Origin: a virus
Length of the DNA stretch: 64,000 nt
Virus record (IMG/VR): IMGVR_UViG_3300045999_007505
Strand: one strand, 5' to 3'
The translations under genes were made by a program, and so were the position numbers. The notes beneath the pieces are model-generated. The model did not search any database and was not told where the DNA came from. It saw only the letters and a list, made by a program, of their open reading frames with translations. Position 1 is the stretch's first letter. Each line of letters opens with the position of its first letter. This document shows, in pieces, positions 13,880-32,679 of this stretch.

Positions 13880-14072
13880 TTACATCCTTGTTTTGTTTTT
13901 TATATCGAGGCCAATTCTTTGTTTTTTCATTAAGCCATGTTTGTCGATCATCACATCCGCAATCTTCATCTAAAAGTTGTGCAATGCGTTTTGCTAAGTC
14001 ATCTAAACGAGTTGCACTTGTTATGCGTTTAATGTCATCACCCAATCCTCTACTTTGCATATTTGCTCCCAT
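13863..14072 (-). CDS. small phage protein (GLGD...CGC motif)
   Basis: SRGLGDDIKRIT...DCGCDDRQTWLN. Confidence 0.7.
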   Translation of the reverse strand: MGANMQSRGLGDDIKRITSATRLDDLAKRIAQLLDEDCGCDDRQTWLNEKTKNWPRYKKQNKDVNGNNK

Positions 14073-15084
14073 TTCGTATTTTATTTAAAAGTTGTATCAT
14101 AACTGTTTGCCATTGTGGAGTATGTGGAATTTCAAATACACGCGTGCCTGGATACATATATTCTCGTTCTGGACGCATTAATTTCATATGTCCCGTATCA
14201 TCAATGCCTAATACTTTGAATGGAACATTGCGCATCGTAATTCGATTGCTAGGTATCATAGTGCATCGACCTGGATGTTTCCATTGTCCCATGCGATCTT
14301 CTATGCCTCCGGTGAATTGCATTATATCATTCCAATCCGTTTCTGTAAGTGTTCGTTGTTTAGTAATGTGTTGTGCTAGTGGATCAACAACTCGTTCGGT
14401 AAATACCATTTGTCCTAATTCTGTTTGTCGCAACATTTCTTTTAATTTATCTATTAAACCTTTATTCCGTAAATGTTTATATGCTAAATTTTCAATTGAA
14501 TATTCTCCTGCAGTATCCAATCCAGTTTGTCGAAGTTTTCTTAAACGTTTCAACAACGTTTTGATTTTAAAATCCAATTTAGCATCATCTGGTTTCAAAT
14601 TGTTTATTTCATATTCATATGGATCGGCCTTTTGTTGGATAACAGTATCATCAATTTGAATGATGTCAGCTGCAGGTTTTGTAATCCATTTATTATTTAA
14701 TATGGAATATACTCCCACTGAATTATGTAGTTGTTGATTTGAATCTTGAGCATACAATTCAATGTTCATGCCCTGATATGTTAACGGGTAATTTGCAGAC
14801 CAAACTGATTTTTTAGCACGCATATAATCATCCACCACGTGCAAGTTAGTTCCTATTTGCAAATAGTTTGTAATTACATGTAAATCGATATCACTGTATT
14901 TCGTCCAATTGTAATTAGCATTGCTACCAATTAATACAACATCAATAACTGGAATATCTTTTCCTAAAAACTCAGTAAATTTTGAAGCAATACGCATCAA
15001 GCCATCTCGAACCTTGGGTTTTAGTTGATGTCCCATCCAAAGCTTTGGATTCAATTCATTGTGTGTTTGATATTCGTTTATCAT
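14050..15084 (-). CDS. Pol-beta superfamily nucleotidyltransferase with extra C-terminal domain
   Basis: hGS-x-DxD signature LIGSNANYNWTKYSDIDLHV and downstream IELY. Confidence 0.8.
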   Translation of the reverse strand: MINEYQTHNELNPKLWMGHQLKPKVRDGLMRIASKFTEFLGKDIPVIDVVLIGSNANYNWTKYSDIDLHVITNYLQIGTNLHVVDDYMRAKKSVWSANYPLTYQGMNIELYAQDSNQQLHNSVGVYSILNNKWITKPAADIIQIDDTVIQQKADPYEYEINNLKPDDAKLDFKIKTLLKRLRKLRQTGLDTAGEYSIENLAYKHLRNKGLIDKLKEMLRQTELGQMVFTERVVDPLAQHITKQRTLTETDWNDIMQFTGGIEDRMGQWKHPGRCTMIPSNRITMRNVPFKVLGIDDTGHMKLMRPEREYMYPGTRVFEIPHTPQWQTVMIQLLNKIRNGSKYAK

Positions 15085-17654
15085 TATTTTTCTAACGTTG
15101 TTGTAAATTTTTGTTTTTTTACCATCGGAATTTCAGATACTGCTTTAAATTGTCCTAAATCTGCAGGATTAATTACTTCACTACCAAAGCCAATTGCCTC
15201 TTCAATCATTTTAAATGGCCATGTTCCAAAAACATATGCTAATAAGGTTGCAATTACGCCTTGTTTCTCATCGATATTGTCCGAATCGACACCTATTTTT
15301 TCAAAAAAGTCTCGAAACTCATTATAAAATACATCCAATCGTTTTAGATTCAGCATGCCATCTAATATCTTTAAAAATCCTCGAACCAGACCTCCAAGAT
15401 ATCTGTTTATAATTGGAGATTTTTGAAAAGCTTCACTAACCCATTTGCCTACAGTTCCTTCTAAATCAAATATTTTTCTGCCACCAAATTCATATTTGAT
15501 AAATCCTTCTCCAGCTGCTTCGTAAAATCTATAAATTCGATTTGGCATCGCTGCCCGCATGTAATTCCAAAAACTCATAGCCCATATTTTATATACAGCA
15601 TTGCCTTTTTGTATGCAATCTATAATAACATCATCTAAAAATTTATTAAGAGCGTCTGCATTTCTAGCCAATGGCATTAAAACTAAATCATTAAATGTTC
15701 TTCTAAATCCTAGACCTGTACCGAGCGATTCTCGTAATACTCTAGCAAATGCAGCTAGAATATCTCGCATACCACTTTCACCAATTTGTTCTACGGTTTG
15801 ACCCCCGAATCTTTGAAATAACGTTGGGAAATATCTTTGGAATATTGCCGGACGTTCTAATAACCATTCTGTTAACAATCTAGGATTTTCTCGGAAATAT
15901 GCATATGCAGCATCAAATATTATTTGTCCGCCGTTTTGTGTTCCCACCAATGTTGTAAAAAATTTTTGTGTAGCTTGTATTGGACCGCCTTGTTTTACAT
16001 ATTGAATAAAACTGTCAATCATAGAACGTTGAAATGCATCAAACCATTTTTTTCCAACGATTCTATAAAACATCCTTGTTACCATACCCGCATTGCTAGC
16101 TAATTCTGTAGTTAAACCTTTAAGTACTTTTCGTATACTCCGGTTTCCTACATATCCTGCAACTTCAGCTGTTCCTTTAGAACCAGCGACTACCAAATCA
16201 CTAGCAGTATCCATTCCTTTTGCAATTTCATCCATAGATCTGGCAAATTGTCGTGCGTATTCTTCAAGCGGTCGACCATATTGAGTAACTATATCATCTA
16301 AAACACGACCAACCCAACCTACAACTGCGCGGCCGCGCAAGTTTCTAGCAATATCCATTAATCTACGAATTCCGCCAGTAACAGCACTTAAAGCTCGAGA
16401 TGCAAATGATGTTAATGCTTGCCTTGCTGCTCTATTTCGAGCTAAATATTCCATGAATGTTTGACGCGCGCCTCGAGCCCATGCCCTAGGTCCTTGCCGA
16501 ATTAAATATTCTAGAGCTTCAATTCCAGTTTTGCTGCCAATTTTTAATCCTTTAAATGCTAGTTTAAAGCCGTTTTTAAACACGCTACCTAGCACCGGTG
16601 CTATTGCAATCATTGATAACAATGCTTCTAATTTCTTGCCACGTATCCAATATACTATTCCATTAAGTACATCGATCGCATCACCATAACCTGGAATTAA
16701 TCCCGCCCAATCTGCTACACTTTGAATCTTATCAACCCACGCTGTTGCAGAAAAATCATATTCTTTTTGATTTTTCCATTTCTTTTCATAAGCTCTTTTA
16801 ACGCCGGTAATATCTAACCATAAAGCTCGTAAAAATCCTGCACCTTTATATGGATCATAATTTTTTTCTAAAAATTTATTGTTAAAAGTAAACATTAATG
16901 TATAATCATTTTGAACGCCGGTTAATATCGGAGCTTCTTTTTCTAAATCCGAATATATTGAAATTTTATTGCCCGTTACTTTATAGGTAAATGTCGATTC
17001 TTTTGCCATTGATAGCGTTTCTGGCATAATTGTTACAGTTTCATTAGGGTGAAATCGCATCCATGCAATAGATTTACCTTTATTATCTGTACATAAAATT
17101 TCATAATCATACCATTGATTGCCTGCATTTGATCTATCAAATACATATCCCGAACTCATACGTTCGCCTTTATCGGCTTTCTCATATTGTGGATCTTGCT
17201 CTACAATTTGTTTAAAGAAATTATCAGCTGTAGTATTTTTCCATTTGTTAAATGGTGTTAACTTATCATATTTACCAGTTTTAATATATTTTAATATTGC
17301 AGCTTGATTATTATTTACTATGAAATTATAAGGTGATGATAAAAAGTCTTTTTTTACTTTTTCAGATGATTTTAAAATATTTAAAATACGTTTCTTATTT
17401 GATGCACCAAATGCCTGTGCATCAGTTCTTGCAAGATCTGATCCGGTTTTTGGATTCCACGGTATCAATTGTTCATTTAATGATTTGATTTCTGTATCGT
17501 TTAGCTGACCAAATCTCGATTCATGATATTCTCGTAAAAATTTTAATATTTGAACATGTTTTTCTATGTCAATATTGGCTGATACATTATTTGCGGATAT
17601 CGATTTCAATTGTGGTTTTAATGATGATTCGATAATCAAATCTAATGATTTCAT
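15084..17654 (-). CDS. large protein with pre-toxin TG-like region
   Basis: DWAGLIPGYGDAIDVLNGIVYWIRGKKLEALLSMIAIAPVLG resembles PT-TG; helical C-terminal half; late motif at 17674-17681. Confidence 0.7.
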   Translation of the reverse strand: MKSLDLIIESSLKPQLKSISANNVSANIDIEKHVQILKFLREYHESRFGQLNDTEIKSLNEQLIPWNPKTGSDLARTDAQAFGASNKKRILNILKSSEKVKKDFLSSPYNFIVNNNQAAILKYIKTGKYDKLTPFNKWKNTTADNFFKQIVEQDPQYEKADKGERMSSGYVFDRSNAGNQWYDYEILCTDNKGKSIAWMRFHPNETVTIMPETLSMAKESTFTYKVTGNKISIYSDLEKEAPILTGVQNDYTLMFTFNNKFLEKNYDPYKGAGFLRALWLDITGVKRAYEKKWKNQKEYDFSATAWVDKIQSVADWAGLIPGYGDAIDVLNGIVYWIRGKKLEALLSMIAIAPVLGSVFKNGFKLAFKGLKIGSKTGIEALEYLIRQGPRAWARGARQTFMEYLARNRAARQALTSFASRALSAVTGGIRRLMDIARNLRGRAVVGWVGRVLDDIVTQYGRPLEEYARQFARSMDEIAKGMDTASDLVVAGSKGTAEVAGYVGNRSIRKVLKGLTTELASNAGMVTRMFYRIVGKKWFDAFQRSMIDSFIQYVKQGGPIQATQKFFTTLVGTQNGGQIIFDAAYAYFRENPRLLTEWLLERPAIFQRYFPTLFQRFGGQTVEQIGESGMRDILAAFARVLRESLGTGLGFRRTFNDLVLMPLARNADALNKFLDDVIIDCIQKGNAVYKIWAMSFWNYMRAAMPNRIYRFYEAAGEGFIKYEFGGRKIFDLEGTVGKWVSEAFQKSPIINRYLGGLVRGFLKILDGMLNLKRLDVFYNEFRDFFEKIGVDSDNIDEKQGVIATLLAYVFGTWPFKMIEEAIGFGSEVINPADLGQFKAVSEIPMVKKQKFTTTLEK

Positions 17655-17684: not shown

Positions 17685-18032
17685 TTACTTCCAAAAGAGT
17701 TGGACTAAAATAAGTGATAGCGCTAGCAATAACGATACTGCCGTTTTTAAATTAACAGCTTCTGCTTTAAATACATATGTCATGATAGTAAATACGAAAA
17801 TACCAGCAACAAATGATGTAAATCGGCCGGGCCAGAATTGTCCTCCGAACCCCGATACTGCATATCGAGTTGCTTCCATGAATGCCCAAGTTATAGGGAC
17901 ACCTAATAACATTAATGCAAATTTATATGTTCTTGCCCATTGCCATAACAAAGGACCATTTACTTGCACCCAAACAACAATTTGTCCTAATAGGAATATT
18001 AGTATGGATGTTGCAATATGTTTATAATTCAT
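17685..18032 (-). CDS. four-helix membrane protein
   Basis: 115 aa with four hydrophobic segments; last gene of the lysis/TCS run. Confidence 0.75.
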   Translation of the reverse strand: MNYKHIATSILIFLLGQIVVWVQVNGPLLWQWARTYKFALMLLGVPITWAFMEATRYAVSGFGGQFWPGRFTSFVAGIFVFTIMTYVFKAEAVNLKTAVSLLLALSLILVQLFWK

Positions 18033-18033
18033 T

Positions 18034-18711
18034 TTATTCGTTTTGGTTTGTAGCGTATTTTATTCCCATGATGGTACCAATTATACTAAATGCATTGGTA
18101 AGCAGTATGCCAAATATATTAGACCATGCTGCACTTATAACTTGAGTGTCCCGATCCATTACTAACGTAAATACATATACGCCCGTAGTGATAATTCCAA
18201 CACCTACTATTACATACAATGCAACGCGCACTATGGTTGAAATAAGTTCTGTTTGATTGCGTTTCTGTAATAGATCCAAATCATTCTCAGCATTAGTCTT
18301 AGCAGCCTCAGCATCAATACGAGAACGTTCAGCATTGGCCATTTCAACGCGCAACTCTTCTGTTAATCTGATATTGGTTGATTTCCATTCATTCAACTCA
18401 ATGTTTTGTTGTTCAAAGGCCGTCTTCGATTCTTCAACATTTGCCAACGTATCTTGTAACTCAGTTAATATGCGTTGATTCTCATCATTCAACCCAGTTA
18501 ATTCTTCATTTTGTTTTTGAATCTTTTTAGTCATTTCGAGACGCTTCTTGCGTTTCTCTGCATCTTTGGATTCACATTCTAATAAGTATTGTTTGAATTC
18601 TTCATCATCTTCTCGATCTACAAGTTTAGTGATGTTTCCTTCTAAGCCAATACCTTTCTTACGATAGAGTTCAACTAACTGTTTTTTGGTATTTGCATCA
18701 AGTTTAATCAT
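18034..18711 (-). CDS. coiled-coil protein with two C-terminal TM helices
   Basis: E/K/N-rich heptads followed by VALYVIVGVGIITTGVYVFTLV and IFGILLTNAFSIIGTIMGI; ATGA-coupled to the receiver gene. Confidence 0.8.
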   Translation of the reverse strand: MIKLDANTKKQLVELYRKKGIGLEGNITKLVDREDDEEFKQYLLECESKDAEKRKKRLEMTKKIQKQNEELTGLNDENQRILTELQDTLANVEESKTAFEQQNIELNEWKSTNIRLTEELRVEMANAERSRIDAEAAKTNAENDLDLLQKRNQTELISTIVRVALYVIVGVGIITTGVYVFTLVMDRDTQVISAAWSNIFGILLTNAFSIIGTIMGIKYATNQNE

Positions 18712-19145
18712 TTATAAATTTTAAATGGTGCTGTTCTATTTTTATAACCGTCATAATCTTTTCTAAAGTCTTCTAATCTAGGTTCAATGTCATCTGACTT
18801 GATAATCCAAAACTGAGCACCTACTTGGATAGCACGTGCCTGCTCTTCTGATTCATTAGATGATGATATGATTCCAATAACAACTTGGTTACCGTATTCG
18901 AAATTAATTTTTCGAATCAATTCAATTCCGTCAAATGAACTACCAATGATATTTAAATCAACAAATACACATTCTGGTTTTTCATCAGACCCACCATCGT
19001 TAAACCATCTTTTAAATTTCTTTTCTGCCTCATCTGCACTACTTAATGATTGCAATGATAAACTTATATCAAGCAACGAACATGCATCTTCAAACACTAA
19101 ATGGAATAAATCCTCATCATCTACTAATAAAATTGAATCAATCAT
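18708..19145 (-). CDS. stand-alone response regulator receiver
   Basis: LLVDDE acidic pocket, FVDLN phospho-Asp, DGIELIRKI, IISSS, IIKS; no output domain. Confidence 0.92.
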   Translation of the reverse strand: MIDSILLVDDEDLFHLVFEDACSLLDISLSLQSLSSADEAEKKFKRWFNDGGSDEKPECVFVDLNIIGSSFDGIELIRKINFEYGNQVVIGIISSSNESEEQARAIQVGAQFWIIKSDDIEPRLEDFRKDYDGYKNRTAPFKIYK

Positions 19146-19155
19146 CTCTTTCTTT

Positions 19156-20568
19156 TTATTTTACTTTTATTTTTATTTTAGTTCCAATATCATTTTTCTC
19201 ACATTCCATATCAAATCCATGCTCTTTTAATATAGCAAAAGATATGTTTAATCCAAGTCCAATTTCATCATTATCTGCATTTGAAACCGTTTTTAAATGT
19301 TTTTTGAATTGTTTGTCAGTCATACCAATTCCATTGTCTTGTACTATGATATGATTGTCTTCTATAAATATAGATACTGATTTGTTTTCGCTGTTATTAT
19401 ATTTCAATCCGTTCTTAACTAAATTTTCAATTGCATTGCAAAACAATATGGAATTAACTGACAATATTCCTAGCTCTGAAACTGAAACTTGTTTGGCATA
19501 GGATGCCTTTTCAAAATATCCATTTAGCAATTGTGTAACATCTTGTTCATCTGTATCAAAATCTACAGTACGTTTAACAAGATTAGTAAATTCATATACG
19601 CTTTTGTAAACACGTTGGGTATGATTCAATCCTTCTCGTATCATTTTAAGTGGGCCTTCAATCTTAAGATCTTTGATAGTATCACCCGTTAATCTTTTTT
19701 CTAATGACGATATCCCGCGTGGTATATATGTGTTGATACCAGAGTGCATATCGTGCCTAATAATTCGCGCAGCATGTTCTAAGTAGGTGTTTTTAGTATT
19801 TATATCTGCTAACTGTCTATCTATTTCTTTGTCTTGAACTTTAATTGTTTTTCGTTGGAATAAAACCATAATACCCAAAGCTAGAAGTAAAATAGCAATG
19901 CCGGCGCCTATCAAGTAATTATTTAATTTCCTAGCATCGTCTTTTAATTTTACTGCCTCAACTTTCATTTCCTCTTCTTTAACAGTCAAATCAATAATTT
20001 GCTTTTCTTTGCCCAAACTTTGTATCGATTCGGTCTTTGCTTTGATTACCTCAGGACTAGCATGACTTTTGATAAGTGCTTCTTTTTCTTTGATTAATTT
20101 TTCTAATTGTCCTTCTATCTCTTGTGCTAATTTTTTCATGTCCGTTGGACTTACATTTTCAAAAGATTTGGGTATGCTTTGTAAAAATTCTTTATCACTT
20201 TGTAAACTAGCAGCTATATCAGCTGGCACCTCTTCTTGGAATACAATCTCTGGTTCTAGTTTTACAATTTCAACATGTGCTTTTACTCGTTCCAAATACC
20301 AATCGGCTCCTTCATACATATCTCGTTGTTTGAAAGCTCTACCCAATCGACGACATATATCGGCTTCATTCTTAGTAATGCCTCGTTTTGATTTCTGTAA
20401 GTTATCAATGCCTACTTTATTAATCAGAGCCGTTATCTCTGCATCATCGGGACAAGTAGGTATTCCATTGACCCAAACGATATTGTTTTCTGGGTCAATT
20501 ATTTTAGTTTGCGAAATAACGTTGTTGATTCCGCATAACAATAGTACTATAAATATTATTTGTTTCAT
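19156..20568 (-). CDS. membrane sensor histidine kinase (signal peptide, extracytoplasmic helical domain, TM, HisKA-HATPase)
   Basis: H-box RHDMHSGIN, N-box ENLVKNGLKYN, G1 QDNGIG, G2 GLGLNI; ATG at 20568 ATGA-coupled (track start 20613). Confidence 0.92.
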   Translation of the reverse strand: MKQIIFIVLLLCGINNVISQTKIIDPENNIVWVNGIPTCPDDAEITALINKVGIDNLQKSKRGITKNEADICRRLGRAFKQRDMYEGADWYLERVKAHVEIVKLEPEIVFQEEVPADIAASLQSDKEFLQSIPKSFENVSPTDMKKLAQEIEGQLEKLIKEKEALIKSHASPEVIKAKTESIQSLGKEKQIIDLTVKEEEMKVEAVKLKDDARKLNNYLIGAGIAILLLALGIMVLFQRKTIKVQDKEIDRQLADINTKNTYLEHAARIIRHDMHSGINTYIPRGISSLEKRLTGDTIKDLKIEGPLKMIREGLNHTQRVYKSVYEFTNLVKRTVDFDTDEQDVTQLLNGYFEKASYAKQVSVSELGILSVNSILFCNAIENLVKNGLKYNNSENKSVSIFIEDNHIIVQDNGIGMTDKQFKKHLKTVSNADNDEIGLGLNISFAILKEHGFDMECEKNDIGTKIKIKVK

Positions 20569-21197
20569 GGCTGTGGTATTTGATAAGGGAATTGAAATGT
20601 AACTGGTCTCCATCTTTCTTTATAATATGTTAGCCAATCTGCATTGGGTTCGTCTTTTTGTTCTCGATTATAATTTTTCCAATATGGATCATCAGAAACA
20701 GGACCGCGCCTTGCTATTGAAAAATTACCAGTACGTCTATGTCCGACTATTATATATGAAGCTAAATCTATTGCTACAACTGTAGATTTTTCGTATGAAT
20801 AATATATGATTGCATTACTTGATGCCGTATTATACAACCATGTACTAACACTATCATATCGTTGTTGTAGGCTATCAAAGTTACTAAATTTATTTTTAAG
20901 TGTAAAACGTAAACCATCTGCAACAGCTTGTATACTATCAATCACTGTTTGTTGTTTAGCTTGTTGTTTTATCATTTCTAAGCTTAGGCTATCAATAACA
21001 GCTTGTTGTTTAACAATATTATTTTTATAGAATGCAACTCTGCTGCGTTGATTTGCAAGAAGAATTTCTATATCTTCATTTTGTTCAACGGTATATATAA
21101 CTACAGAATCACCCTTTAAGATGGTCTGTACAGGATAATTTTGTGCTAATGATAAAAAGGATAATGTAATGACCAATAATGTTAATAACTGTTTCAT
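20565..21197 (-). CDS. secreted/periplasmic coiled-coil protein
   Basis: Sec-type signal MKQLLTLLVITLSFLSLA-Q; repeated QQxVIDS; coupled to both flanking kinases. Confidence 0.75.
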   Translation of the reverse strand: MKQLLTLLVITLSFLSLAQNYPVQTILKGDSVVIYTVEQNEDIEILLANQRSRVAFYKNNIVKQQAVIDSLSLEMIKQQAKQQTVIDSIQAVADGLRFTLKNKFSNFDSLQQRYDSVSTWLYNTASSNAIIYYSYEKSTVVAIDLASYIIVGHRRTGNFSIARRGPVSDDPYWKNYNREQKDEPNADWLTYYKERWRPVTFQFPYQIPQP

Positions 21198-22099
21198 ATT
21201 ACCTTTATTTTTATTTTAGTGCCAATCATGTTTTTTTCACACGAAATACTAAATCCATGTTCTTGCAATATAGCAATACAAATATTTAATCCTAAACCAC
21301 TGCCTGATTCTTTTTGTCCTTCTTTTCTAGTATACGGTTGAGATAAGTTATCGAACTCTTCCTGTGTTATTCCGCGGCCATTATCTTGTAAAATTAACAA
21401 ATCATCTTCCATGTATATCCTAACCATTTTAAAATCACTGTCATTGTATTTTAATCCGTTACGAATTAAATTATCTAATGCTGTGCAAAACAATGATTCA
21501 TTAACTGATACTACGGGTAATTCGTCAATGATAACTTGACTTTTATATGATGTGGATGCTAGATAATTTTCTAGAATAGTTTTTAAATTGTGATCATCGC
21601 GATTTAGTACTGCATCTTTCTTTACTAAATTGGTAAACTCATAAACTCCTTTATAAACTTTTTGAGAATGCGCTAAGCCCTCTTTAATCATTTTTAATGG
21701 AGCTTCAATCTTTAAGTCATCAATAACCGTTTGTGGTACTCTGCGTTCTAAGGATGAAACGCCTCTAGGAATATAAGTATTGATACCTGAATGCATATCG
21801 TGTCTAAGTATCTTTGCTGCATGCTCGAGATATGTATTTTGTTTGCGTACTTCGCCAACCTGATTGTCAATTTCATCAATCATTCGTCGCTTCTGAAGTA
21901 GAAACTCAGAAACAAATACAAAGAATGGGGGCATGAATCCGATTACACAACCATAACCAAACCTAGCTAATTCGTAATTAGGCGGACATAAACCAAATAC
22001 GACACATGTTTGTACAGCAAAGAAAATAAACATAATGGCACCAGCAATTCCCAGTGCCATCTTCGATCGTAATGATATGCCCAATAATGCGTCGCGCAT
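21194..22099 (-). CDS. two-TM sensor histidine kinase
   Basis: H-box RHDMHSGIN, N-box DNLIRNGLKYN, G1 QDNGRG, F-box SQPY, G2 GSGLGLNI; ATG at 22099 overlaps the amidase TAA (track start 22135). Confidence 0.92.
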   Translation of the reverse strand: MRDALLGISLRSKMALGIAGAIMFIFFAVQTCVVFGLCPPNYELARFGYGCVIGFMPPFFVFVSEFLLQKRRMIDEIDNQVGEVRKQNTYLEHAAKILRHDMHSGINTYIPRGVSSLERRVPQTVIDDLKIEAPLKMIKEGLAHSQKVYKGVYEFTNLVKKDAVLNRDDHNLKTILENYLASTSYKSQVIIDELPVVSVNESLFCTALDNLIRNGLKYNDSDFKMVRIYMEDDLLILQDNGRGITQEEFDNLSQPYTRKEGQKESGSGLGLNICIAILQEHGFSISCEKNMIGTKIKIKVI

Positions 22100-22776
22100 T
22101 ATAATGTTTTCAGCATTGCAATCATACGAGGACATGGATGAATATCCGATTTATCCTTGCGATATGAATTGTGCGTATATACACCCGCTTCTCCTTTCAA
22201 AGCCCGTGTCGATATAGACCACATATCTTCTTCTCGGTATGTTAAGTCAATGCCGTAAGTGTCTCGCCAATGTAACAATAAATTTTTAACTGATTCAATC
22301 TGTGCATCTGTATATGCATGATAATATTTGTGACCTTTATATGGAGTCTCTAATTCAGTTACCTGATCTGCAGGAATTTCTCGATCCACATAATTGTAAA
22401 ATTTATCACCAACTTTATCTAATGGCCCCCAACTGCAAATTTCGATTCCAATTGAAGTTTTATCTAATGCCTTATAAGGCACGCCTTTCGATTTAAATAC
22501 ATCCTGCTTAAGGCCTAAATGATAACCCCAATGCTTAGATGAAAATGCTTGACAAATTTCTCCATCATATGTGTCTTTTGATACACCTTTACCAGAAATA
22601 ACAACACAGGTAGCAATGCGACCTCTATCATCTTTATCCCACATCTTAATTGTGCCCGGGCCTGATGAATTTCCTGCTGTGTGATGTATTACGATTTGTT
22701 TCTTTTCCGTTGCTTCTTTATAATATTGCGTTTCGCTTAACGGAACTTGTTTAATTTTTGATGTGTCTAAACTCAT
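22099..22776 (-). CDS. N-acetylmuramoyl-L-alanine amidase (Amidase_2-type endolysin)
   Basis: IVIHHTAG, SIGIEI, YTDAQIES, YTHNS...KSD zinc-amidase motifs. Confidence 0.9.
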   Translation of the reverse strand: MSLDTSKIKQVPLSETQYYKEATEKKQIVIHHTAGNSSGPGTIKMWDKDDRGRIATCVVISGKGVSKDTYDGEICQAFSSKHWGYHLGLKQDVFKSKGVPYKALDKTSIGIEICSWGPLDKVGDKFYNYVDREIPADQVTELETPYKGHKYYHAYTDAQIESVKNLLLHWRDTYGIDLTYREEDMWSISTRALKGEAGVYTHNSYRKDKSDIHPCPRMIAMLKTL

Positions 22777-23195
22777 TTTCGTGAACCTTTATGTAAATCA
22801 ATTTTATCTAAAATTTCTACTAACAGTTTCCCATCAATCAACCCCGCCATGGATGCATTCTTAAGTGCGCTTACTATTTGAAAAATAATAAATGGCAATA
22901 AAATTGTCTCACTCAACCAACCCGTACCCGGGAAACCTTTTTCAATAACTAACAATATTGTTAAGAATATAATCCAAACTACCATTGTTTGTAAAACCTT
23001 AAGAGCTTTAAATGTTTTGAACCCTTCTCGTTTAGTTCCTGCAATTACTCCGAAGAAGCCATCTGTCATTACTACTCCAACCAATGCCAAATACTGTTCT
23101 GAATTTGCCATAGCCATGTTGAAAAAATATGTGCAGATAAATGCTAACACAGTGCTTGCCGAATATAATATAGTTGTTATTGTTGTTGTTTTCAT
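22773..23195 (-). CDS. phage holin family protein
   Basis: 3-4 TM segments, DGFFGV and SALKNA...G motifs; lies between two wall hydrolases. Confidence 0.8.
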   Translation of the reverse strand: MKTTTITTILYSASTVLAFICTYFFNMAMANSEQYLALVGVVMTDGFFGVIAGTKREGFKTFKALKVLQTMVVWIIFLTILLVIEKGFPGTGWLSETILLPFIIFQIVSALKNASMAGLIDGKLLVEILDKIDLHKGSRK

Positions 23196-24007
23196 TATTT
23201 AATGTCCGCAGATTCAATCAATGTATATGTAAAAGAATTACCGTGGATGTCCCGTGCTTTACGACAAATGGTCATAAATTCTTCAAAATCCTTAACTCGT
23301 TTAAATACTTGACAACCTTCGGACCAATTTTCAACATATGTTGAATCTGCACCTGCTTTATGTATATTAATTCCAAACAATCCTTCTTGTATTGATTTTT
23401 CATCATATACCATATCTTTATTTGGATCACGGAATACTTTAACTGGTTTATTTTGTCCTAGTGCTTCATACTTACCAGCATGTAAACGCATAATGTGTGA
23501 ATTAATATACTGACCTTCTACTAATCTAGCAACACCTGCTTTGTTTCCATATTGCATTACACCTTTAGTTCCGGGATCTGTAGTAGCTGGCCAGCAATGG
23601 AATTTTTCTTCTCCATTTACCGTGTAAGTTAATGTAATGTGATCATCAAATAAGTTTGTTACTTTTTGTCCTGTGTCTGAATTGCGCGCGCCTACTATGT
23701 TTAATAGGTAATCTTTCCCTTCAAACCATTTGTGCCCTTTAGATGTAACGGCAGTTTTGATTTGAGCTGCTGTATATTTAGGGCTTTTAGTTGATGGTGG
23801 AGTTGCTGCAGCTTTTGCTTCTACAACAATACCCATCTTAGCCAATGTTGCTGGGCCTACTACGCCATCAGCAGTCAATCCATTTGCTGTTTGCCAGGCT
23901 TTTACAGCTTCTTCTGTTTTAGGACCAAAACTTCCTACTGGGTCTACGCCTAATACTACTTGAATTTTTTTGACCGTTTCGTTGTTGTCACCTCTTTTTA
24001 GTACCAT
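23195..24007 (-). CDS. peptidoglycan-binding protein with putative catalytic domain (endolysin candidate)
   Basis: PG_binding_1 (GSFGPKTEEAVKAWQ...LTADGVVGPAT); C-terminal GINIH...WSEGCQV His/Cys motif resembling the L,D-transpeptidase fold. Confidence 0.8.
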   Translation of the reverse strand: MVLKRGDNNETVKKIQVVLGVDPVGSFGPKTEEAVKAWQTANGLTADGVVGPATLAKMGIVVEAKAAATPPSTKSPKYTAAQIKTAVTSKGHKWFEGKDYLLNIVGARNSDTGQKVTNLFDDHITLTYTVNGEEKFHCWPATTDPGTKGVMQYGNKAGVARLVEGQYINSHIMRLHAGKYEALGQNKPVKVFRDPNKDMVYDEKSIQEGLFGINIHKAGADSTYVENWSEGCQVFKRVKDFEEFMTICRKARDIHGNSFTYTLIESADIK

Positions 24008-24008
24008 G

Positions 24009-24266
24009 TTAACCTATCTCCTCATTGTTTTCTTGATTTGATTTTTTTCCAGCAAATTTTTCTAAACCTGCTATCCCTAAACTTCCCAATGTTACAATAA
24101 CAAATGAATTGTAAATGTATTCATTTAATTTTAATTCATTACCAAAATACCCAGTTATTAAATCTACAAGCATTGCAAGTGTCATAACTGCAAATGACAT
24201 AAACCCAATAATGGTTTTTTCGTTGTAATCATTTGAATCTTTAAAGATTTGATTAAATCCCGCCAT
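24009..24266 (-). CDS. small two-TM membrane protein (holin/antiholin candidate)
   Basis: GGGAG RBS before ATG 24266; two hydrophobic helices; first gene after the late motif. Confidence 0.7.
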   Translation of the reverse strand: MAGFNQIFKDSNDYNEKTIIGFMSFAVMTLAMLVDLITGYFGNELKLNEYIYNSFVIVTLGSLGIAGLEKFAGKKSNQENNEEIG

Positions 24267-24294
24267 ATTATCTCCCGTTAAATTATTACTTTCA

Positions 24295-24302
24295 TATAAA
24301 TA
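24295..24302 (-). promoter_or_regulatory. putative late promoter TATTTATA heading the lysis/TCS run
   Basis: Recurrent intergenic motif. Confidence 0.55.
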
Positions 24303-24329: not shown

Positions 24330-25484
24330 TTACTTTTTACAAACAATTAAATTGTTTTCATAGGTTTGAATGTGTTGAATTGTAATTTTAAGATTTCCTA
24401 ATTCAAATTGTTCGCCTGGCTGATTGAATTCAGCTAATAAGTCGGTTGCATCTAATATTTCTGCTAGTTGTTGAATATATGTAAAATCCTGATTTGTAAA
24501 CTGTTGCCCGTCAATTTCAACTACAATATCATCATAATCATAACGGTCTAATTCAGTTAATGAATGGCAACGCTTTGTTAAATCATATGAAGTTTTGGGT
24601 TGCTCTAAGGTAACATATTTCATCCATGTTGCATCGGAGTATATTCTGTCGCACCATGGCTCCAATGTTTCTAACAATTGCATTGTACAATTTTCTACAC
24701 GCAAGGCAATGTTATACTTTGATGCACCAGATCTTGTACCCCATTTCCTAACAAAATTTTTATTAGATTGCAATTCTATTTGTTGAGTTCGATTTTGATA
24801 TTCTTCTGAGAATCTTGATGTTTTGCTAACAAAGTGATAACATATCGCATCCAATGCCGTAAAACAATTCATACCCAAAAGATGCCATCTGCGTATTAAA
24901 TCATCATCTTCACAAAACATTGGATTAAACAAATTGTCTAAACCGCCTAATTCTAATAACTTTATTCTAGGCATACACATAAAAAATGTAATACCAGATT
25001 CCGTTTTGTCTAGATATTTAATTTGTTCAGTTTTTACAAATTCATATAAAGCATCTTTACTAAACGTTTCCAATGATGTGCCTAAATCATGAATAAGTTT
25101 ACCAGGACGCTCATGTCCTGCGAATATAGGTGGTTCTATTGTGGTATATGACACCACGTTATTGTCTGATACGTGTTTTTCTAAATTTTCTAAAAATCCA
25201 GGTGCCAATACGATGTCATTATGCAAATATGCTACATAATCTTTAGTTGACAATTCTGCAGCCTTATTAAATGTATCGGAAAATGTTTTTATTTCGTCCG
25301 AGTAAAAATATTTCAAATTGTTATCTGCTAATGAATCTAACCATTCATTGGTTCCATCAGTCGACCCATAACTTACAAAACATATTTCTGTATCTGGATA
25401 CAATGCTCTTGTAGTTTGATAAAAATGCTTATTGTAGTCTAGATTATTTTTTAAACCTACTAAAAGTGAAATGTTATTTGTCAT
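24330..25484 (-). CDS. glycosyltransferase family 2
   Basis: GSTDGT, YLHNDIV, LGGLD...FCEDDDL, YHF motifs. Confidence 0.88.
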   Translation of the reverse strand: MTNNISLLVGLKNNLDYNKHFYQTTRALYPDTEICFVSYGSTDGTNEWLDSLADNNLKYFYSDEIKTFSDTFNKAAELSTKDYVAYLHNDIVLAPGFLENLEKHVSDNNVVSYTTIEPPIFAGHERPGKLIHDLGTSLETFSKDALYEFVKTEQIKYLDKTESGITFFMCMPRIKLLELGGLDNLFNPMFCEDDDLIRRWHLLGMNCFTALDAICYHFVSKTSRFSEEYQNRTQQIELQSNKNFVRKWGTRSGASKYNIALRVENCTMQLLETLEPWCDRIYSDATWMKYVTLEQPKTSYDLTKRCHSLTELDRYDYDDIVVEIDGQQFTNQDFTYIQQLAEILDATDLLAEFNQPGEQFELGNLKITIQHIQTYENNLIVCKK

Positions 25485-26341
25485 AGATAAGCTTTATAAG
25501 TTTGTACATGTTGAGTAGCAACGTATTTGCTATTACATAATTCTTTAATATAATCAGGTGCAGCAGTTTCAATTGATTGTATATTTCCGTTTACATCAAT
25601 AATATACATATATCCCGGAACATCGCAACACCAACCTTCTAATGTAGTCCTACCTAATAAAATACCCACAGTAAAATGCATCATTTGTACTATGTTTTCT
25701 GTATCCCATCGCTTATCTACATATTTTATATTAGGATGATTAAAATCATAACGACTTTCACTCATTATGTATAAATCCCAATCATTTTCAATGCATTCTT
25801 GAACTATATGTTGCACAGCTTTAAATCGTATTGGATCTAATACTTCTCCAACAAATATTCCAGAATAACGTTCTAATTTAGATGCATCCTCAGTATTAAA
25901 TCTGTTTTGATCAATTGGATTATAAATCAATGAAACTTTGTTTGAAGGAATTTTATAATCATTAATTAACATGTCCGCAATAGGTTTTCGTATTGCAATG
26001 TAATGTGATATTCTGCTATCTAATATGGGATCTTCAGATCTAATTTCTGAATGTATAATACTAATGATAGGAATTTCTTTAAAATGTTCTAACATAAACA
26101 AGTTAACTTGTGGCTGACTTGCTACTATTATATCATATTTTTCTGTAATATCCAAATTTGTTACATCTAATTGCCGTACATGTTGCAATTTTAATCTAAC
26201 TTGATCCATCCAATCGATTTCTCGCAATGTGAATAATGTAACATCATGCCCCATTAAATCTAATTCTCGTGCTAGTTCGTAATGATATAATTCACTGCCG
26301 CCTAATCCATTAGCATTTAAGCATCCTAAAAGTATTTTCAT
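25481..26341 (-). CDS. GT-B glycosyltransferase (GT4-like)
   Basis: GGSE...LARELDLMGHDVTLF, IYNPID, GRTTLEG. Confidence 0.8.
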   Translation of the reverse strand: MKILLGCLNANGLGGSELYHYELARELDLMGHDVTLFTLREIDWMDQVRLKLQHVRQLDVTNLDITEKYDIIVASQPQVNLFMLEHFKEIPIISIIHSEIRSEDPILDSRISHYIAIRKPIADMLINDYKIPSNKVSLIYNPIDQNRFNTEDASKLERYSGIFVGEVLDPIRFKAVQHIVQECIENDWDLYIMSESRYDFNHPNIKYVDKRWDTENIVQMMHFTVGILLGRTTLEGWCCDVPGYMYIIDVNGNIQSIETAAPDYIKELCNSKYVATQHVQTYKAYL

Positions 26342-26919
26342 GATTTGTATTTTAAATAATTGTTAAACATAGCTTGATTATAATCTCGATATCCATCTTG
26401 CAAATCAGAATGTGATGGAAGTTGATAAGCAATCATTGGATCGCACATGTATATGTTATGATCGGGCATTAAATTGTGATAATGTACATCCATTTCACAT
26501 ACGTGTGGTAAATTTATTATAGTATCATAAAAACGTTCATGAACCATATATGCATGTGCTGCATATGCACCATTTAATTTTAATAACGAATCAGAAACTC
26601 TATTTGCTAGAGTTTGTAAATTTGCACCTAAGAAAAACATATCCCATTGCATTGTTTGTATTTCGGCAAATGCATGTTCTAATATACTAAATGAATCATC
26701 TGTAAATATAGCATCATCTTCTAAAACTAAAATATATGGCAATTGATTTTCTTTTGCCAATTGGATACATTTTTTTTGTGATTGAAAACATGTTTTAGTT
26801 TCATCAACAATTCCTTCAATGATTGTATAATTGTTTGAAATCTTCAGAACCTCTTGTTCAATATGTTCTCGCCGGTCCGTTCGATGTTTTAAATTGATAA
26901 TGTATGTAGGTATATTCAT
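26338..26919 (-). CDS. glycosyltransferase family 25
   Basis: YIINLKHRTDRR, LVLEDDA, AHAYMV. Confidence 0.85.
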   Translation of the reverse strand: MNIPTYIINLKHRTDRREHIEQEVLKISNNYTIIEGIVDETKTCFQSQKKCIQLAKENQLPYILVLEDDAIFTDDSFSILEHAFAEIQTMQWDMFFLGANLQTLANRVSDSLLKLNGAYAAHAYMVHERFYDTIINLPHVCEMDVHYHNLMPDHNIYMCDPMIAYQLPSHSDLQDGYRDYNQAMFNNYLKYKS

Positions 26920-27599
26920 ATTCTAGCTTTTAATAAATAAAGTATAGTACCATCTTTACATTGTATATATGCATTTGGATATGGGTCTTGCAATGATCTA
27001 ATTTTATCATATAATTGTATAGCAGTATAATTACTAAAATCGTCTATATGTATTTCACTCATTGATTTAGTTCTTCGCTTACATAATGTTGCTAATTCGT
27101 GATTTTGTGGTGTTCTTGGTACATTTGAACTAATAGCAAAGTCGAATATTATTTTTGCAATTACCGGATATGATAATTGTATTATTTTAAAAAAAATATC
27201 CGATAATTCACCACGTAATTCAATTGGTACTTGATAGATAATATCTCCAGTATCTAATCCCCTGTCCATGACAAAAAACGTTATTGCACTATCATAATCA
27301 CCATTAATGATTTGATTTTGAATAGGACTGCCGCCTCGATATTTTGGCAACGGTGAAGGATGTAAACATATACATAATTTTTCATTAATGATATGGTCTG
27401 GAACTATATCGCTCCATCCGATAAAAAATAACAAATCATATGTTGTTAGATCTAACGCCAATAATTGTTCCGTGGACTGAATATGTGTTATGTCTACATT
27501 TAATTCCGAATACATTTCATCAATGAAAAATTCAGTATACATTAATATTTCTTTTGCCCATTCTCGATATGAACAATATAATATTTTTATTCTATCCAT
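26916..27599 (-). CDS. formyltransferase (Fmt-like; probably sugar N-formyltransferase)
   Basis: LHPSPLPKYRGGSPI, MDRGLDTGDI, IRSLQDPYPNAY. Confidence 0.85.
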   Translation of the reverse strand: MDRIKILYCSYREWAKEILMYTEFFIDEMYSELNVDITHIQSTEQLLALDLTTYDLLFFIGWSDIVPDHIINEKLCICLHPSPLPKYRGGSPIQNQIINGDYDSAITFFVMDRGLDTGDIIYQVPIELRGELSDIFFKIIQLSYPVIAKIIFDFAISSNVPRTPQNHELATLCKRRTKSMSEIHIDDFSNYTAIQLYDKIRSLQDPYPNAYIQCKDGTILYLLKARI

Positions 27600-28213
27600 C
27601 TTAATACCTCAAAACCTTCTGCAAAATCAACGTTTGCTTGAATACCGCGAATTGCAGCTAAATTTTTAATCATTTCAGCATTGCGAAACGATCTAACTTG
27701 CGATTTCATTAAATGATATGAATTAATTTTTTCTTCTATATTCAATAGCCTAAAATACGTAGGATTAAATGTATGATAATTATGATTCCATAAATCTTGA
27801 ATTTGTTCATATACAAATACCTTTTTTACGAAAAAATTTAAATCATGTGGCCTCAATGCAGTCAATGCAGCTTCATATACTACTCGATGATCTTGATTGT
27901 ATGACGGCACCGGTATATATAATTCATCTGGTTGAATTTGATTTATAATTCGCTCAAACTCTGGAATCAGACTCTGAATTGTATACGTATTAACTTCATT
28001 ATCTAAAATCTCATATGAGAATTGCAATTTAGTTTGAACTACATTTAATTCATTTAATCGTTCTTGAAGTTTAGGACGTTGTTTTACCCAATCAAAATTA
28101 ATTTTACTTTCATCGCATCCGCAATATAAAATAAAACAGTTTTTATCAATTGAACTAAAACAACCTAATAGTTCATCGTCAATGTGTGGTGCAATAATTA
28201 AACGTTTATACAT
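27587..28213 (-). CDS. PIG-L/LmbE family de-N-acetylase
   Basis: IAPHIDDE and NQDH zinc motifs; SQVR...AEGF C-terminus. Confidence 0.88.
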   Translation of the reverse strand: MYKRLIIAPHIDDELLGCFSSIDKNCFILYCGCDESKINFDWVKQRPKLQERLNELNVVQTKLQFSYEILDNEVNTYTIQSLIPEFERIINQIQPDELYIPVPSYNQDHRVVYEAALTALRPHDLNFFVKKVFVYEQIQDLWNHNYHTFNPTYFRLLNIEEKINSYHLMKSQVRSFRNAEMIKNLAAIRGIQANVDFAEGFEVLRWIE

Positions 28214-29112
28214 TAGTTATGATTATTTAATATTTGTAAAAATTCTTGCATTCTTGCTTTCCAAGTATGATTTTTAATTGCAATTTCATATGATTTAGCT
28301 GCCAAGCTTGATCGTTCGTCATCATTATTCAAATAATAATCAAATAATTCTGGCCATTCTTGCCACGTGGCAGTTACAATACTCCCTTCGAATAAATTTA
28401 AAACTAAGGGGTGATCGCATAATTGAAATGCTCCTGCCAATGCAATATTATATACACTTTGATTTAAATCAACTCTATCTTTAGGATGCCCCTCATTATC
28501 TCTTTGATAATCATAATGAAAATTAATATTAATTTTACTTTGATTTCGAATTGTATTCGATTGGTCATATGGTAAAAATGGAATTCCATAATTTTTATAC
28601 GTCATACCAGCTAAATAAAAGTTACCTTTTTCTACATATGGATACAAATATTTATCTTCTTCTCTATATCCATGGGCTAACGTTCCAATAAAGCATGCAT
28701 CATATTGCAATGCACACTCAATTGGCTGAAATAAATGATTATTTCCTGCTAATGGAACATGATACATTTGAAATCCGATTTCATTAAATTGTTTAATTAA
28801 ATCAGGACATTGGTGTTGAGTTGTAATAAAAAAATCAATTAATCCTATAAATTGACTATGAAATGGTTGAAGACAATCAGTTGAACAAACAATTTTAACA
28901 TTTGGATTATGATTTTTTACAAATTCAAAATCTTGTAAATTCATTCCTCCTACATAAACGATTAAATCATACATATGAGTTGCAGCAGAACGTATGGAAT
29001 GCTGTTCCGTCGGATAAAAATCAACTTCATGACCTAAATCTATAAATCCATAGCCCCATTCTTTAAAAATAGGAGTTGGGTGATTATTTGTATCAAAAAC
29101 TGCGATTTTCAT
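28213..29112 (-). CDS. CgeB/YkvP-like GT-B glycosyltransferase
   Basis: DACFIG, SKININF, GAFQL, YYL...ER..A...HTWKAR. Confidence 0.8.
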   Translation of the reverse strand: MKIAVFDTNNHPTPIFKEWGYGFIDLGHEVDFYPTEQHSIRSAATHMYDLIVYVGGMNLQDFEFVKNHNPNVKIVCSTDCLQPFHSQFIGLIDFFITTQHQCPDLIKQFNEIGFQMYHVPLAGNNHLFQPIECALQYDACFIGTLAHGYREEDKYLYPYVEKGNFYLAGMTYKNYGIPFLPYDQSNTIRNQSKININFHYDYQRDNEGHPKDRVDLNQSVYNIALAGAFQLCDHPLVLNLFEGSIVTATWQEWPELFDYYLNNDDERSSLAAKSYEIAIKNHTWKARMQEFLQILNNHN

Positions 29113-29690
29113 TGAAACGTTTCCATTATTTGTTGCCAGCTTAATGGTCTAGTAAGTTCTTCACGGTTTGCATCTAAAAATTCATAAGTAGGCTGTACAT
29201 CTAACTTGTGACCTATTTGATTTCCGCGGCGGACGTATCCAGCATATGATGGCAATATTGCGTGCATCTCTAAATTCGTACGTTTCCCTAATTCTGCAAA
29301 CGCTTCCCAAGCATTATGGCAATATGTAGCACTAAGTAAAAATGGTTGATCTGGATTAATATCGTCCATTATAATAGTTCCATTTTCATTTAGTCGTTGC
29401 AATGCGTTTTCAAAATCTCTTAATACTTGATCCTTTTCATGTGATGCATCAATAAAGATAATATCCCACGTTTTATCATTCCCAACAGTCTCAAAAAATT
29501 CATCCGTTGTCATGCAATGTGTTGGAGAACATGCTGCATTGATGTCTACTCCTTCTTTAATAGCACAATTGATATGATTAAATGTATTACTAGAATCTCG
29601 CACCCCGAGCTCTAAATAACTTTGATAATTAAACCGTTTTACGAAAAATTCAATAATTTCTCGATATGGAACTTGATATGGATTACTCAT
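29109..29690 (-). CDS. class I SAM-dependent methyltransferase (Methyltransf_24-like)
   Basis: YLELGV, GVD, DIIFIDASH, GTIIMDD. Confidence 0.88.
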   Translation of the reverse strand: MSNPYQVPYREIIEFFVKRFNYQSYLELGVRDSSNTFNHINCAIKEGVDINAACSPTHCMTTDEFFETVGNDKTWDIIFIDASHEKDQVLRDFENALQRLNENGTIIMDDINPDQPFLLSATYCHNAWEAFAELGKRTNLEMHAILPSYAGYVRRGNQIGHKLDVQPTYEFLDANREELTRPLSWQQIMETFQ

Positions 29691-30336
29691 TTATTAAACC
29701 TTCTTTTGTAAATACTTCTTGCCAACCTTCGGAAACTCGTCCGCCGACCCTAGCATAATTAAAATATATTGATTTTTCGCGTGCTTTCAAAATAATTGTC
29801 GGAGTTAATGTTTGTGTAAACATATTACCATCCAATTCGAATTGCCATGGACTATAGTCTGCTTTCAAAACTTGTTTTAAATAATCAGTGCGCCAAACTG
29901 CTGGTTGAACTGAATTCAAATATTGACTATGATTTTCAAATTGATATAAATCGGATTCGAGATGTTTTAATTCGTATACTCCCGAAGGATACAGTTTATC
30001 GAACATGATTTTATCTGCATTTAAATGTTCTAATATATCGATGTGTTCTTGTATAAAAGTATCAGTTATTGGTTCCGTTAAATAATAATCTTCGAGAATA
30101 AAACAAACATATGGAGTAGAAACTTGATCTAATGCACATAACATTCGATATCCCCATGGTAAATTTAATCCAGGTAATACATTTTCATATCCATCATATG
30201 GTAATGAAATCGTTTCCCCAACGAATATATTTTTTGTATCTAAATTCCAATATCGTTTGTATAATATATCAAAATTCTTCCAAAGCGATTGATATGAATC
30301 ACATGAACCAATTACGACAGTTAATTTATCTTTCAT
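29683..30336 (-). CDS. putative GT-A fold glycosyltransferase
   Basis: SCDSY...W, FILEDY, QPAVWR, SPWQFE; glycan cluster context. Confidence 0.65.
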   Translation of the reverse strand: MKDKLTVVIGSCDSYQSLWKNFDILYKRYWNLDTKNIFVGETISLPYDGYENVLPGLNLPWGYRMLCALDQVSTPYVCFILEDYYLTEPITDTFIQEHIDILEHLNADKIMFDKLYPSGVYELKHLESDLYQFENHSQYLNSVQPAVWRTDYLKQVLKADYSPWQFELDGNMFTQTLTPTIILKAREKSIYFNYARVGGRVSEGWQEVFTKEGLINE

Positions 30337-31036
30337 AAAATTCTTTTAGTTCTATTAGTTGTTGTTTAATGTTTATTGTCTTAACATGGCCAGTTAAACA
30401 TTTATCCGATCCAATGCCATCAATTGGATGAATTTCAATATCATGATTAAAAACTTCTTTCATACTAGTTAATAATTCAAATTTAGAAATACAATCCGAA
30501 TTGAATACTGTATATGTAGATTGTGCATTTTGAGTTTCGATTAAACATTTACATTGTTTAGCCCATTCTAATGTCGTAATTCCATTCCATTTAGCTTGTA
30601 AATAGCCATTTACTTGTGGTTGATTTAAAAACCAACATAATAAACTATCTGCTGAATTTAATTCAATTCCTATGATTGATGTTTTAAAAATATATGTATT
30701 TTTACCGTTAACTCGTAACCAATCTGTTGCAATTCGTTTTGATATTCCATATAGCGAATTATCCGATTCGCAATCAGTTGCAGGATGTATAATTTTACAC
30801 GTACTATTTAATTCTAAAAAAATTGGTAATATCGAATTAATTCCAAAGTCCGATGTTTTTTGTGGTATTGCTCCGATACAATTAATAATATAATCACCTT
30901 CATATGATTTTATATAATCAATAAATTCATTAGACGGCCATCTAAAATCAATCGTATCAATTGTATAATATTTCTGTAGATAACGCTGAACTGCGTTACC
31001 TAACATCCCCGTATGTCCTAAAATTAATATTTGCAT
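30326..31036 (-). CDS. rmlD: NDP-4-keto-6-deoxysugar reductase (RmlD-like)
   Basis: GHTGMLG, INCIG, TDC, YGISK (YxxxK), TSIIG, WNGITT. Confidence 0.8.
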   Translation of the reverse strand: MQILILGHTGMLGNAVQRYLQKYYTIDTIDFRWPSNEFIDYIKSYEGDYIINCIGAIPQKTSDFGINSILPIFLELNSTCKIIHPATDCESDNSLYGISKRIATDWLRVNGKNTYIFKTSIIGIELNSADSLLCWFLNQPQVNGYLQAKWNGITTLEWAKQCKCLIETQNAQSTYTVFNSDCISKFELLTSMKEVFNHDIEIHPIDGIGSDKCLTGHVKTINIKQQLIELKEFYER

Positions 31037-31809: not shown

Positions 31810-31816
31810 ATATATC

Positions 31817-32677: not shown

Positions 32678-32679
32678 GT

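Follow-up and report, generated by a model that had tools for sequence, protein, structure and literature searches.

A phage-borne kinase-receiver set with a membrane output probably tied to lysis genes

The IMG/VR virus record IMGVR_UViG_3300045999_007505, a 64,000-nucleotide stretch that we call the window, carries a string of ten minus-strand genes (24266-17685, numbered g1 to g10 from the upstream end) in which lysis genes are joined to two histidine kinases, a stand-alone receiver and a 225-aa membrane protein, g9. The original prediction for this string was a two-component system that tunes the timing of lysis. Comparison with related loci shows it to be a genuine phage phosphorelay, widespread and under selection, whose membrane output is undescribed and probably tied to lysis. 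Judged by gene neighbourhoods, the conserved unit is kinase, receiver and g9, and the holin and amidase found here are lineage-specific neighbours. We lean, by a modest degree, toward a mechanism in which a sensor acts through the phosphorylated receiver on g9, as a post-translational control of lysis timing in a probable Bacteroidota phage. The three members of the unit are as follows.

21194 to 22099, minus strand: kinase 1, 301 aa (start at 22099), two membrane helices joined by a short loop, neither GAF nor PAS domain, His100.
18708 to 19145, minus strand: stand-alone receiver, 145 aa, D63, a Response_reg domain with no output domain.
18034 to 18711, minus strand: g9, 225 aa, an N-terminal input module (residues ~1-100), a long coiled coil and a C-terminal two-helix membrane module, as delimited by profile search.

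Kinase 1 keeps His100, the N box, G1, the ATP lid and a full G2 box, as expected of a two-component kinase, and the catalytic core is intact in 114 of 115 orthologues. Its H-box region gives no scoring match as Pfam HisKA; the best PDB sequence match is a HisKA kinase (8f71). The receiver retains D9/D10/E11, D63, S94-96 and K116, residues that are invariant or nearly so in 43 homologues, so that the predicted acidic pocket, phospho-Asp and Lys are borne out, together with the switch Ser/Thr of two-component receivers. Its best PDB sequence match is a single-domain regulator (3ilh). By these motifs, kinase 1 and the receiver make the system a member of the two-component class. The ratio of nonsynonymous to synonymous substitution (dN/dS) is ~0.006 for the receiver (dN 0.003 at dS 0.52) and ~0.1 for both kinases and g9, which indicates that the kinase-receiver set carried by the phage is complete and is strongly held by purifying selection. 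A host cassette captured and carried along without function, a reading to which the existence of bacterial copies lends some color, is largely refuted by this selection. The protein collection, with ~4,400 clusters of g9 and ~3,900 of the receiver, also speaks against such a passenger, as does the grouping of the phage receivers on one side of a 99/99 branch (in an unrooted tree, from which the direction of donation between phage and bacteria is not readable), and we find it hardly credible.

Neighbourhoods were counted over 81 related loci. Of these, 74 have the receiver and 70 have g9, always in the order kinase, receiver, g9. DNA patterns of kinase 1 recovered relatives in at least 258 IMG/VR stretches, and the same patterns found one contig in 185,579 GTDB genomes (L081), itself phage-like; homologues thus lie mainly on phage contigs and not on bacterial chromosomes, as had been anticipated. 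Related contigs of 290-322 kb, near complete, hold one receiver and one g9 each, and five large relative contigs contain no other receiver. L081 is a 13.5-kb contig in a Verrucomicrobia metagenome-assembled genome, with a type II topoisomerase pair and phage-type unknowns, and is probably a phage contig binned into that assembly. No chromosomal form was found in 300 other Verrucomicrobiota, and weak g9 matches in this phylum were rejected as generic coiled coils.

An origin in phages only is not supported. On Bacteroidota-type chromosomal contigs (L257/L258, L261, L265), a kinase that shares 55% identity with kinase 1 over the full length and a receiver 71% identical to ours are followed by a third gene in which the g9 N-module heads a second kinase, the output here being a kinase. 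Among T9SS (type IX secretion system) cargo and SusC-like genes, these copies stand in a bacterial setting, and the chromosomal form may be commoner than seen in these searches. They raise the possibility of cross-talk, in which a host cascade belonging to the same family would be fed or drained by the phage receiver or kinases, with g9 serving to anchor or sequester the receiver. The 71%-identical receiver followed by an N-module kinase would provide such a cascade, and the kinase of phage phiCDHM1 has been proposed to use a host regulator (PMC3901668). Against cross-talk, the chromosomal form is rare in the GTDB and Verrucomicrobiota searches, and the membrane module of g9, itself highly conserved, does its work with no receiver at hand in the fusions described below. 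We regard this explanation as distinctly improbable. A YceI gene directly precedes the kinase both in bacterial-type L258 (601-1134) and in phage L145 (6770-7294), the two being ~60% identical, and L202 (5992-6522) is listed with them for the same arrangement. The similarity is hinting at exchange of a YceI-kinase-receiver block between phage and bacteria.

The third gene of the bacterial cassette also offers a clue to the role of the g9 N-module. Profile searches place this module at the head of HisKA-HATPase kinases (E 1e-17 to 1e-20). Since it follows the receiver in bacteria and phages alike, the N-module is likely the docking site of the receiver, with an exchangeable output behind it. 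N-module kinases in L260 and L264 do not stand in the kinase-receiver-third gene order. A predicted complex of the receiver with g9 residues 1-150 scored 0.19, which we take neither for nor against binding. In P0358, a putative fusion, the N-module is followed by a weak I-TevI-like DNA-binding domain; P0318, which combines part of g9 with FecCD, was set aside as it looks chimeric.

The C-terminal part of g9, comprising the coiled coil and two membrane helices, is also found fused directly to PAS-PAS, PAS or GAF domains. Such one-component fusions occur at full length in at least 80 phage loci from 25 lineages, and kinase and receiver accompany them in none of the 80. Two complete 120-kb genomes with a fusion contain no receiver, and the fusion of L345 sits where the gene order of L055 has the three-gene module. 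A lysin lies within two genes of the fusion in 17 of the 25 lineages, and a small membrane gene resembling g1 is adjacent to PAS-g9 fusions in 12 of 25 (shuffle mean 1.9). Fusions and neighbours together provide good comparative evidence that the membrane module is a sensor-controlled output that belongs with the lysis genes, and this, with the gene order, supports the earlier suggestion that the 225-aa protein is the likely output. The neighbourhoods of the fusions point to g1, rather than the holin-like g3, as the partner of g9. The PAS fusions and the GAF fusions each make up a well-supported group of their own, on a weak backbone, which is consistent with two origins. One family of PAS-PAS proteins with the membrane module (L268-L347), found inside lysis cassettes of phages of 120 kb and larger, is labelled methyl-accepting chemotaxis protein by a source annotation.

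The association with lysis genes was assessed in 34 dereplicated lineages with enough flanking sequence, by 20,000 within-locus shuffles. A wall-lysin gene is the immediate neighbour of the module in 18 lineages and lies within two genes in 22. The shuffles gave a mean of 2.8 immediate neighbours and a maximum of 10, and Pfam-confirmed lysins alone still account for 17 of 34 lineages. For the control families DnaK, metallophosphoesterase and F4, lysin adjacency was 0-1. The predicted linkage of the module to lysis genes thus recurs across phages far above chance. The adjoining lysins are GH19 enzymes with a peptidoglycan-binding domain, enzymes of the g2 type, amidases, M15 peptidases and lysozyme-like proteins, placed divergently upstream in 12 cases, downstream in 7 and upstream in the same orientation in 3. 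In G002, G003 and G006, the best or only peptidoglycan-binding gene adjoins the module. As the lysins vary in type, side and strand, and the module in most lineages starts behind a motif of its own, it is lysins generally to which the module is linked, and not by co-translation with the holin of this string.

Several observations weigh against a role of g9 in lysis. No lysin lies within two genes in 12 of the 34 lineages, and none in the fetched flank in 7. The holin g3 family is present in 12 and the amidase in 7 of the 81 loci, indicating that the neighbours seen here are not conserved. Every link to lysis is one of gene order, late genes cluster in any case, and the lineages share ancestry, a kinship that the shuffle counts ignore. 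The g9 model (predicted local distance difference test 86, predicted template modelling score 0.33) consists of a long helix and a hairpin and found no match in Foldseek. Its best hint of a known holin, Phage_holin_9 (E 0.023), is below the cut-off, and HHalign detected no homology of the membrane part with F30, g1, g3 or Phage_holin_10-like families.

These points could be explained if the relay controls g9 and g9 has another late membrane job, such as superinfection exclusion, guarding of the membrane potential or envelope remodelling, given that envelope-acting late genes cluster near lysins. About one third of lineages without a near lysin, a module that often starts behind a motif of its own and is oriented away from the lysin (12 of 22 adjacencies), and the dissimilarity of g9 to any known holin would all fit. 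Such a job accounts less well for the fusions, which belong to different, smaller phages and likewise lie hemmed in by small membrane genes and lysins, and for the control late and other families, which show no such lysin adjacency. We consider it unlikely, albeit a serious contender. Like holins and antiholins, g9 has membrane helices and is encoded in lysis cassettes. We retain lysis control as the preferred reading.

The remaining features of the string are as follows.

24295 to 24302, minus strand: upstream motif TATTTATA, putative phage promoter, 29 nt before g1.
24009 to 24266, minus strand: g1, 85-aa two-helix membrane protein of family F136/F8, a holin-like candidate and candidate partner of g9.
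23195 to 24007, minus strand: g2, peptidoglycan-binding domain and catalytic domain of YkuD/L,D-transpeptidase fold, from domain and structure searches.
22773 to 23195, minus strand: g3, holin-like membrane protein (Phage_holin_4_1-like, weak matches).
22099 to 22776, minus strand: g4, Amidase_2 endolysin (Pfam/PHROG).
22034 to 22061, minus strand: predicted 11-bp hairpin with a U-rich tract, inside the first codons of kinase 1.
20565 to 21197, minus strand: g6, 210 aa, a secreted accessory protein with Gln after its signal peptide, occurring only before kinase 2.
19156 to 20568, minus strand: kinase 2, 470 aa, with a signal peptide, a helical domain in the periplasm, a single membrane helix and His272; its ATP lid and G2 are degenerate.
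17685 to 18032, minus strand: g10, 115-aa multi-pass membrane protein, a lineage-specific neighbour.

Most of the domains originally assigned are confirmed, namely the peptidoglycan-binding domain of g2, Amidase_2 in g4, two HATPase_c domains and one Response_reg domain; the holin match of g3 is weak (Pfam E 1e-3, below cut-off; PHROG holin 1e-4). The catalytic domain of g2 has an invariant His and a Ser-x-Gly-Cys motif, and its top 19 VIA matches are all L,D-transpeptidase/carboxypeptidase folds (Z 5.3-8.0, root-mean-square deviation ~3-4 A), with Foldseek E values of only 0.01-0.1. Fold and catalytic His...Cys together identify a YkuD/L,D-transpeptidase fold, and by sequence and model g2 is probably a wall peptidase, neither a classical lysozyme nor an amidase. 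HHalign assigns g1 to F136/F8 (99.8%). In the ESM Atlas, searches with g9 and g1 returned unnamed viral clusters only; the nearest named cluster for g1, DUF2644, is a lead only. The gene g10 occurs in 10 of the 81 loci, outside the conserved core.

In its original form, the prediction envisaged one ten-gene transcript, two active kinases and a receiver that acts directly on the holin g3 upon an extracellular cue. Gene calls and gap sizes confirm the ten-gene order and its tight junctions, which from g1 to g10 measure +1, -1, -4, -1, -4, -4, +10, -4 and +1 nt. The string is contiguous and bounded by two upstream motifs, the one at 24295-24302 being present as described and a similar one following g10. 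RNA-library contigs from lake samples cover most of the genes at 85-99% identity, and those of close strains bridge the amidase-kinase 1 and receiver-g9 junctions, which favours a joint transcript weakly (strand and single transcript are not readable from the contigs, and DNA is possible). Kinase 2 and g6 would, in addition, offer a periplasmic input.

Other observations argue against direct action on g3. Its family occurs in only 2 of 34 lineages within two genes of the module, besides its scarcity among the loci, yet conservation of the receiver surface is 75-99% throughout. A mechanism based on coupling to the particular holin and amidase of this string is not supported. The tight junctions, read before as special coupling, are the norm of this genome, where 54 of the 81 junctions in the window are ≤10 nt. 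The supposed absence of a terminator inside the string does not hold either, as an 11-bp hairpin resembling a terminator is found at 22061-22034, where kinase 1 begins, and kinase 2 is degenerate (see below). We hold direct control of g3 to be improbable. The hairpin has a z of -2.5 here and -4.2/-6.5 in relatives (counterpart in L082/L084 at 7087-7106), and ten close loci retain it, with a single compensatory change, G-C to A-U, between two sequence types. It may be an attenuator of transcription from the lysis genes into the relay, or a translation gate, and is only a lead because the number of such sites is not above chance, the counts of sigma-70 promoters and terminators in the region both being at chance level. 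Likewise, TATTTATA occurs 16 times overall, at chance level (13.9 expected), including two copies inside kinase 2. TATTTAT is strand-biased and start-proximal, with 11 of 26 minus-strand copies ≤50 nt from a start, and among 38 related loci with a gap >25 nt, 27 have a motif of this class ahead of the kinase.

Both kinases had been described as keeping the H, N, G1 and G2 boxes. This holds in full for kinase 1. Kinase 2 keeps His272, the N box and G1, and its His helix region is identical to that of kinase 1 at 58 of 85 positions; the lid motif and the first G2 glycine are lost here and are absent from 42 of 43 distinct orthologous cores. By sequence, kinase 2 thus lacks the intact lid and G2 of a two-component kinase, and a system of two intact kinases is not supported. 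Purifying selection (dN/dS ~0.12) acts on kinase 2 all the same, and g6 and kinase 2 occur together in ~30 of the 81 loci. Kinase 2 is probably a weak kinase, a phosphatase or a heterodimer partner, which modulates rather than drives the relay. In L081, kinase 2 keeps an intact lid and G2. In L065 (6858-8672), one kinase combines the periplasmic domain of the kinase-2 type with a PAS domain and a catalytic core that is fully intact; on this evidence the kinase-2-type ectodomain is a swappable sensor. From the comparison of loci, what is particular to the lineage of the window is the sensorless two-helix kinase, the degenerate second kinase and the full enclosure within the lysis string.

Taken together, these observations allow a sequence of events to be proposed. 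Kinase 1 would autophosphorylate and pass the phosphate to D63 of the receiver, as the intact motifs and the selection suggest. The receiver, having no output domain, would act on the g9 N-module, in line with the invariant gene order and the same module in the bacterial third gene. The signal would then travel along the g9 coiled coil to the two-helix membrane module, which, judging by fusions and neighbours, might act in the lysis pathway as a regulated holin, an antiholin or a holin partner, perhaps with g1. In most relatives the kinase carries two membrane helices followed by a GAF and one or two PAS domains, pointing to a cytoplasmic input that may read redox or energy state. Kinase 1 in this lineage is devoid of GAF/PAS sensor domains and might sense via its membrane hairpin alone, with kinase 2 and the secreted g6 adding a periplasmic input. 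Kinase 2, g6 and g10 are candidate accessory partners of kinase 1. The extracellular or envelope cue proposed at the outset could enter here through kinase 2 and g6. As the sensors of most relatives are cytoplasmic GAF/PAS domains, an input from host physiology is no less likely.

As relatives keep the membrane part beside lysis genes, sometimes fused to a sensor, the phage set probably helps to decide when the host bursts. A bolder version, which we hold tentatively and rate a little short of even, is that of a widespread, so far undescribed class of lysis control, in which large aquatic Bacteroidota phages gate a new holin/antiholin-type membrane module by a His-Asp relay that docks on a new receiver-binding module, or by direct PAS/GAF fusion. 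Lysis time would follow the redox, energy or envelope state of the host, and the impaired kinase 2 with its secreted partner would act here as a periplasmic veto, for example upon superinfection.

The window derives from a large phage of freshwater. All its long open reading frames are on the minus strand, and PHROG matches include a family B DNA polymerase, ribonucleotide reductase, a DnaB-like helicase and GroEL; in relatives, ClpS, lysozyme-LysM and Phage_holin_10 genes lie downstream. This gene content indicates a large phage. The host is probably a member of the Bacteroidota, because of three features: a Gln and a small residue after the signal peptide in 43 of 44 kinase-2 and 33 of 34 g6 proteins (a crude pattern based on the Q-rule for signal peptides, PMC5837995), a T9SS-type protein near the L090 module, and the neighbours of the bacterial copies. 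T9SS type B sorting domains occur in phage-encoded proteins near the module in L090 (2498-4705) and, as family F31, in L052, L105 and L114. In the cultured/GenBank phage collection, the kinase core has no real homologue, with a single 30% match.

Directly upstream of the string lies a long glycosyltransferase/sugar-modification island (24330-36025), the content of which varies among close relatives. Downstream, an 856-aa gene behind its own upstream motif (15084-17654) is a variable insertion, 25% identical in relatives and missing from some close strains (L082, L083). The following 344-aa gene (14050-15084), nucleotidyltransferase-fold-like with a C-terminal extension and no NCBIfam match, is a conserved downstream neighbour within this phage group. 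A DNA polymerase A-like fragment protein stands alongside the family B polymerase (60694-62016 and 44847-47366).

If the proposal is true, thousands of aquatic phages would set their burst time by host state, with effects on burst size and on carbon release in lakes, and a new receiver-output module would be common to bacteria and phages. The natural one-component versions, with PAS/GAF and membrane part in one protein, simplify testing to one gene, one lysin and one small partner. To our knowledge, signal-dependent lysis delay has been worked out in very few coliphages (T4; N4 and CSP1 partly), none of which uses a phosphorelay. No paper on a lysis-linked kinase-receiver set in phages, or on PAS-gated holins, turned up in literature searches, and a jumbo-phage survey mentions solely non-kinase receivers (PMC7824862).

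With classical two-component systems that use single-domain (CheY-like or Rcp1-like) receivers, the system shares a HATPase_c His kinase and a stand-alone receiver with acidic pocket, Asp and Lys. It differs in being phage-encoded, in an H-box region that is not Pfam HisKA, and in its output, an undescribed coiled-coil/two-helix membrane protein. Kinase 1 has the architecture of the intramembrane-sensing kinases SaeS, LiaS and BceS, which possess two helices, a linker of <25 aa and no extracytoplasmic domain and need accessory parts (PMC4388633). Hydropathy puts the two helices of its 301-aa form at residues ~16-34 and ~50-68. Unlike SaeS, LiaS and BceS, kinase 1 stems from a GAF/PAS-bearing family, in a Gram-negative context and without a DNA-binding regulator. 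A further counterpart is the Bacteroidota-type cassette, for which no description was found in the literature searched. Kinase family, receiver, N-module in the third gene, gene order and overlaps agree, and its kinase is also sensorless in L257, as is kinase 1 here. In contrast, the third gene ends in a second kinase instead of a membrane module, and the neighbours are YceI, AraC, T9SS cargo and SusC-like genes, with no lysins.

A histidine kinase taken from the host signalling kit is also carried by phiCDHM1, in its agr3 locus (PMC3901668). That locus serves peptide quorum sensing in a temperate Firmicute phage that has no receiver, and it has no membrane output gene; genes of AgrB, AgrD or AgrC type gave no match among the ten genes or their conserved neighbours. 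In bacteria, the LytSR system is set over the holin/antiholin-like membrane proteins LrgAB/CidAB (PMC5717393) and, much as proposed here, joins membrane or metabolic state to lysis. LytSR is chromosomal and transcriptional, with LytR binding DNA, and its kinase is of a different family; the receiver described here, 145 aa without output domain and single in each genome, is not a LytTR regulator. The target of B. subtilis LytSR is a pyruvate transporter, which cautions against inferring lysis from resemblance (PMC5717393). T4 lysis inhibition, which employs the holin T with the antiholins RI and RIII (PMC8385771, PMC11413866), is likewise a post-translational, signal-dependent timing of lysis with a periplasmic and a cytoplasmic part, the relay here being a proposal. 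T4 operates without a phosphorelay, and most relatives of our system have a cytoplasmic GAF/PAS input. The T, RI and RIII families have no Pfam/PHROG match among the ten genes, g9, g6 and g1 included, where remote homology is possible. By analogy, the system may work like T4 lysis inhibition or LytSR-Lrg, yet it is a member of neither.

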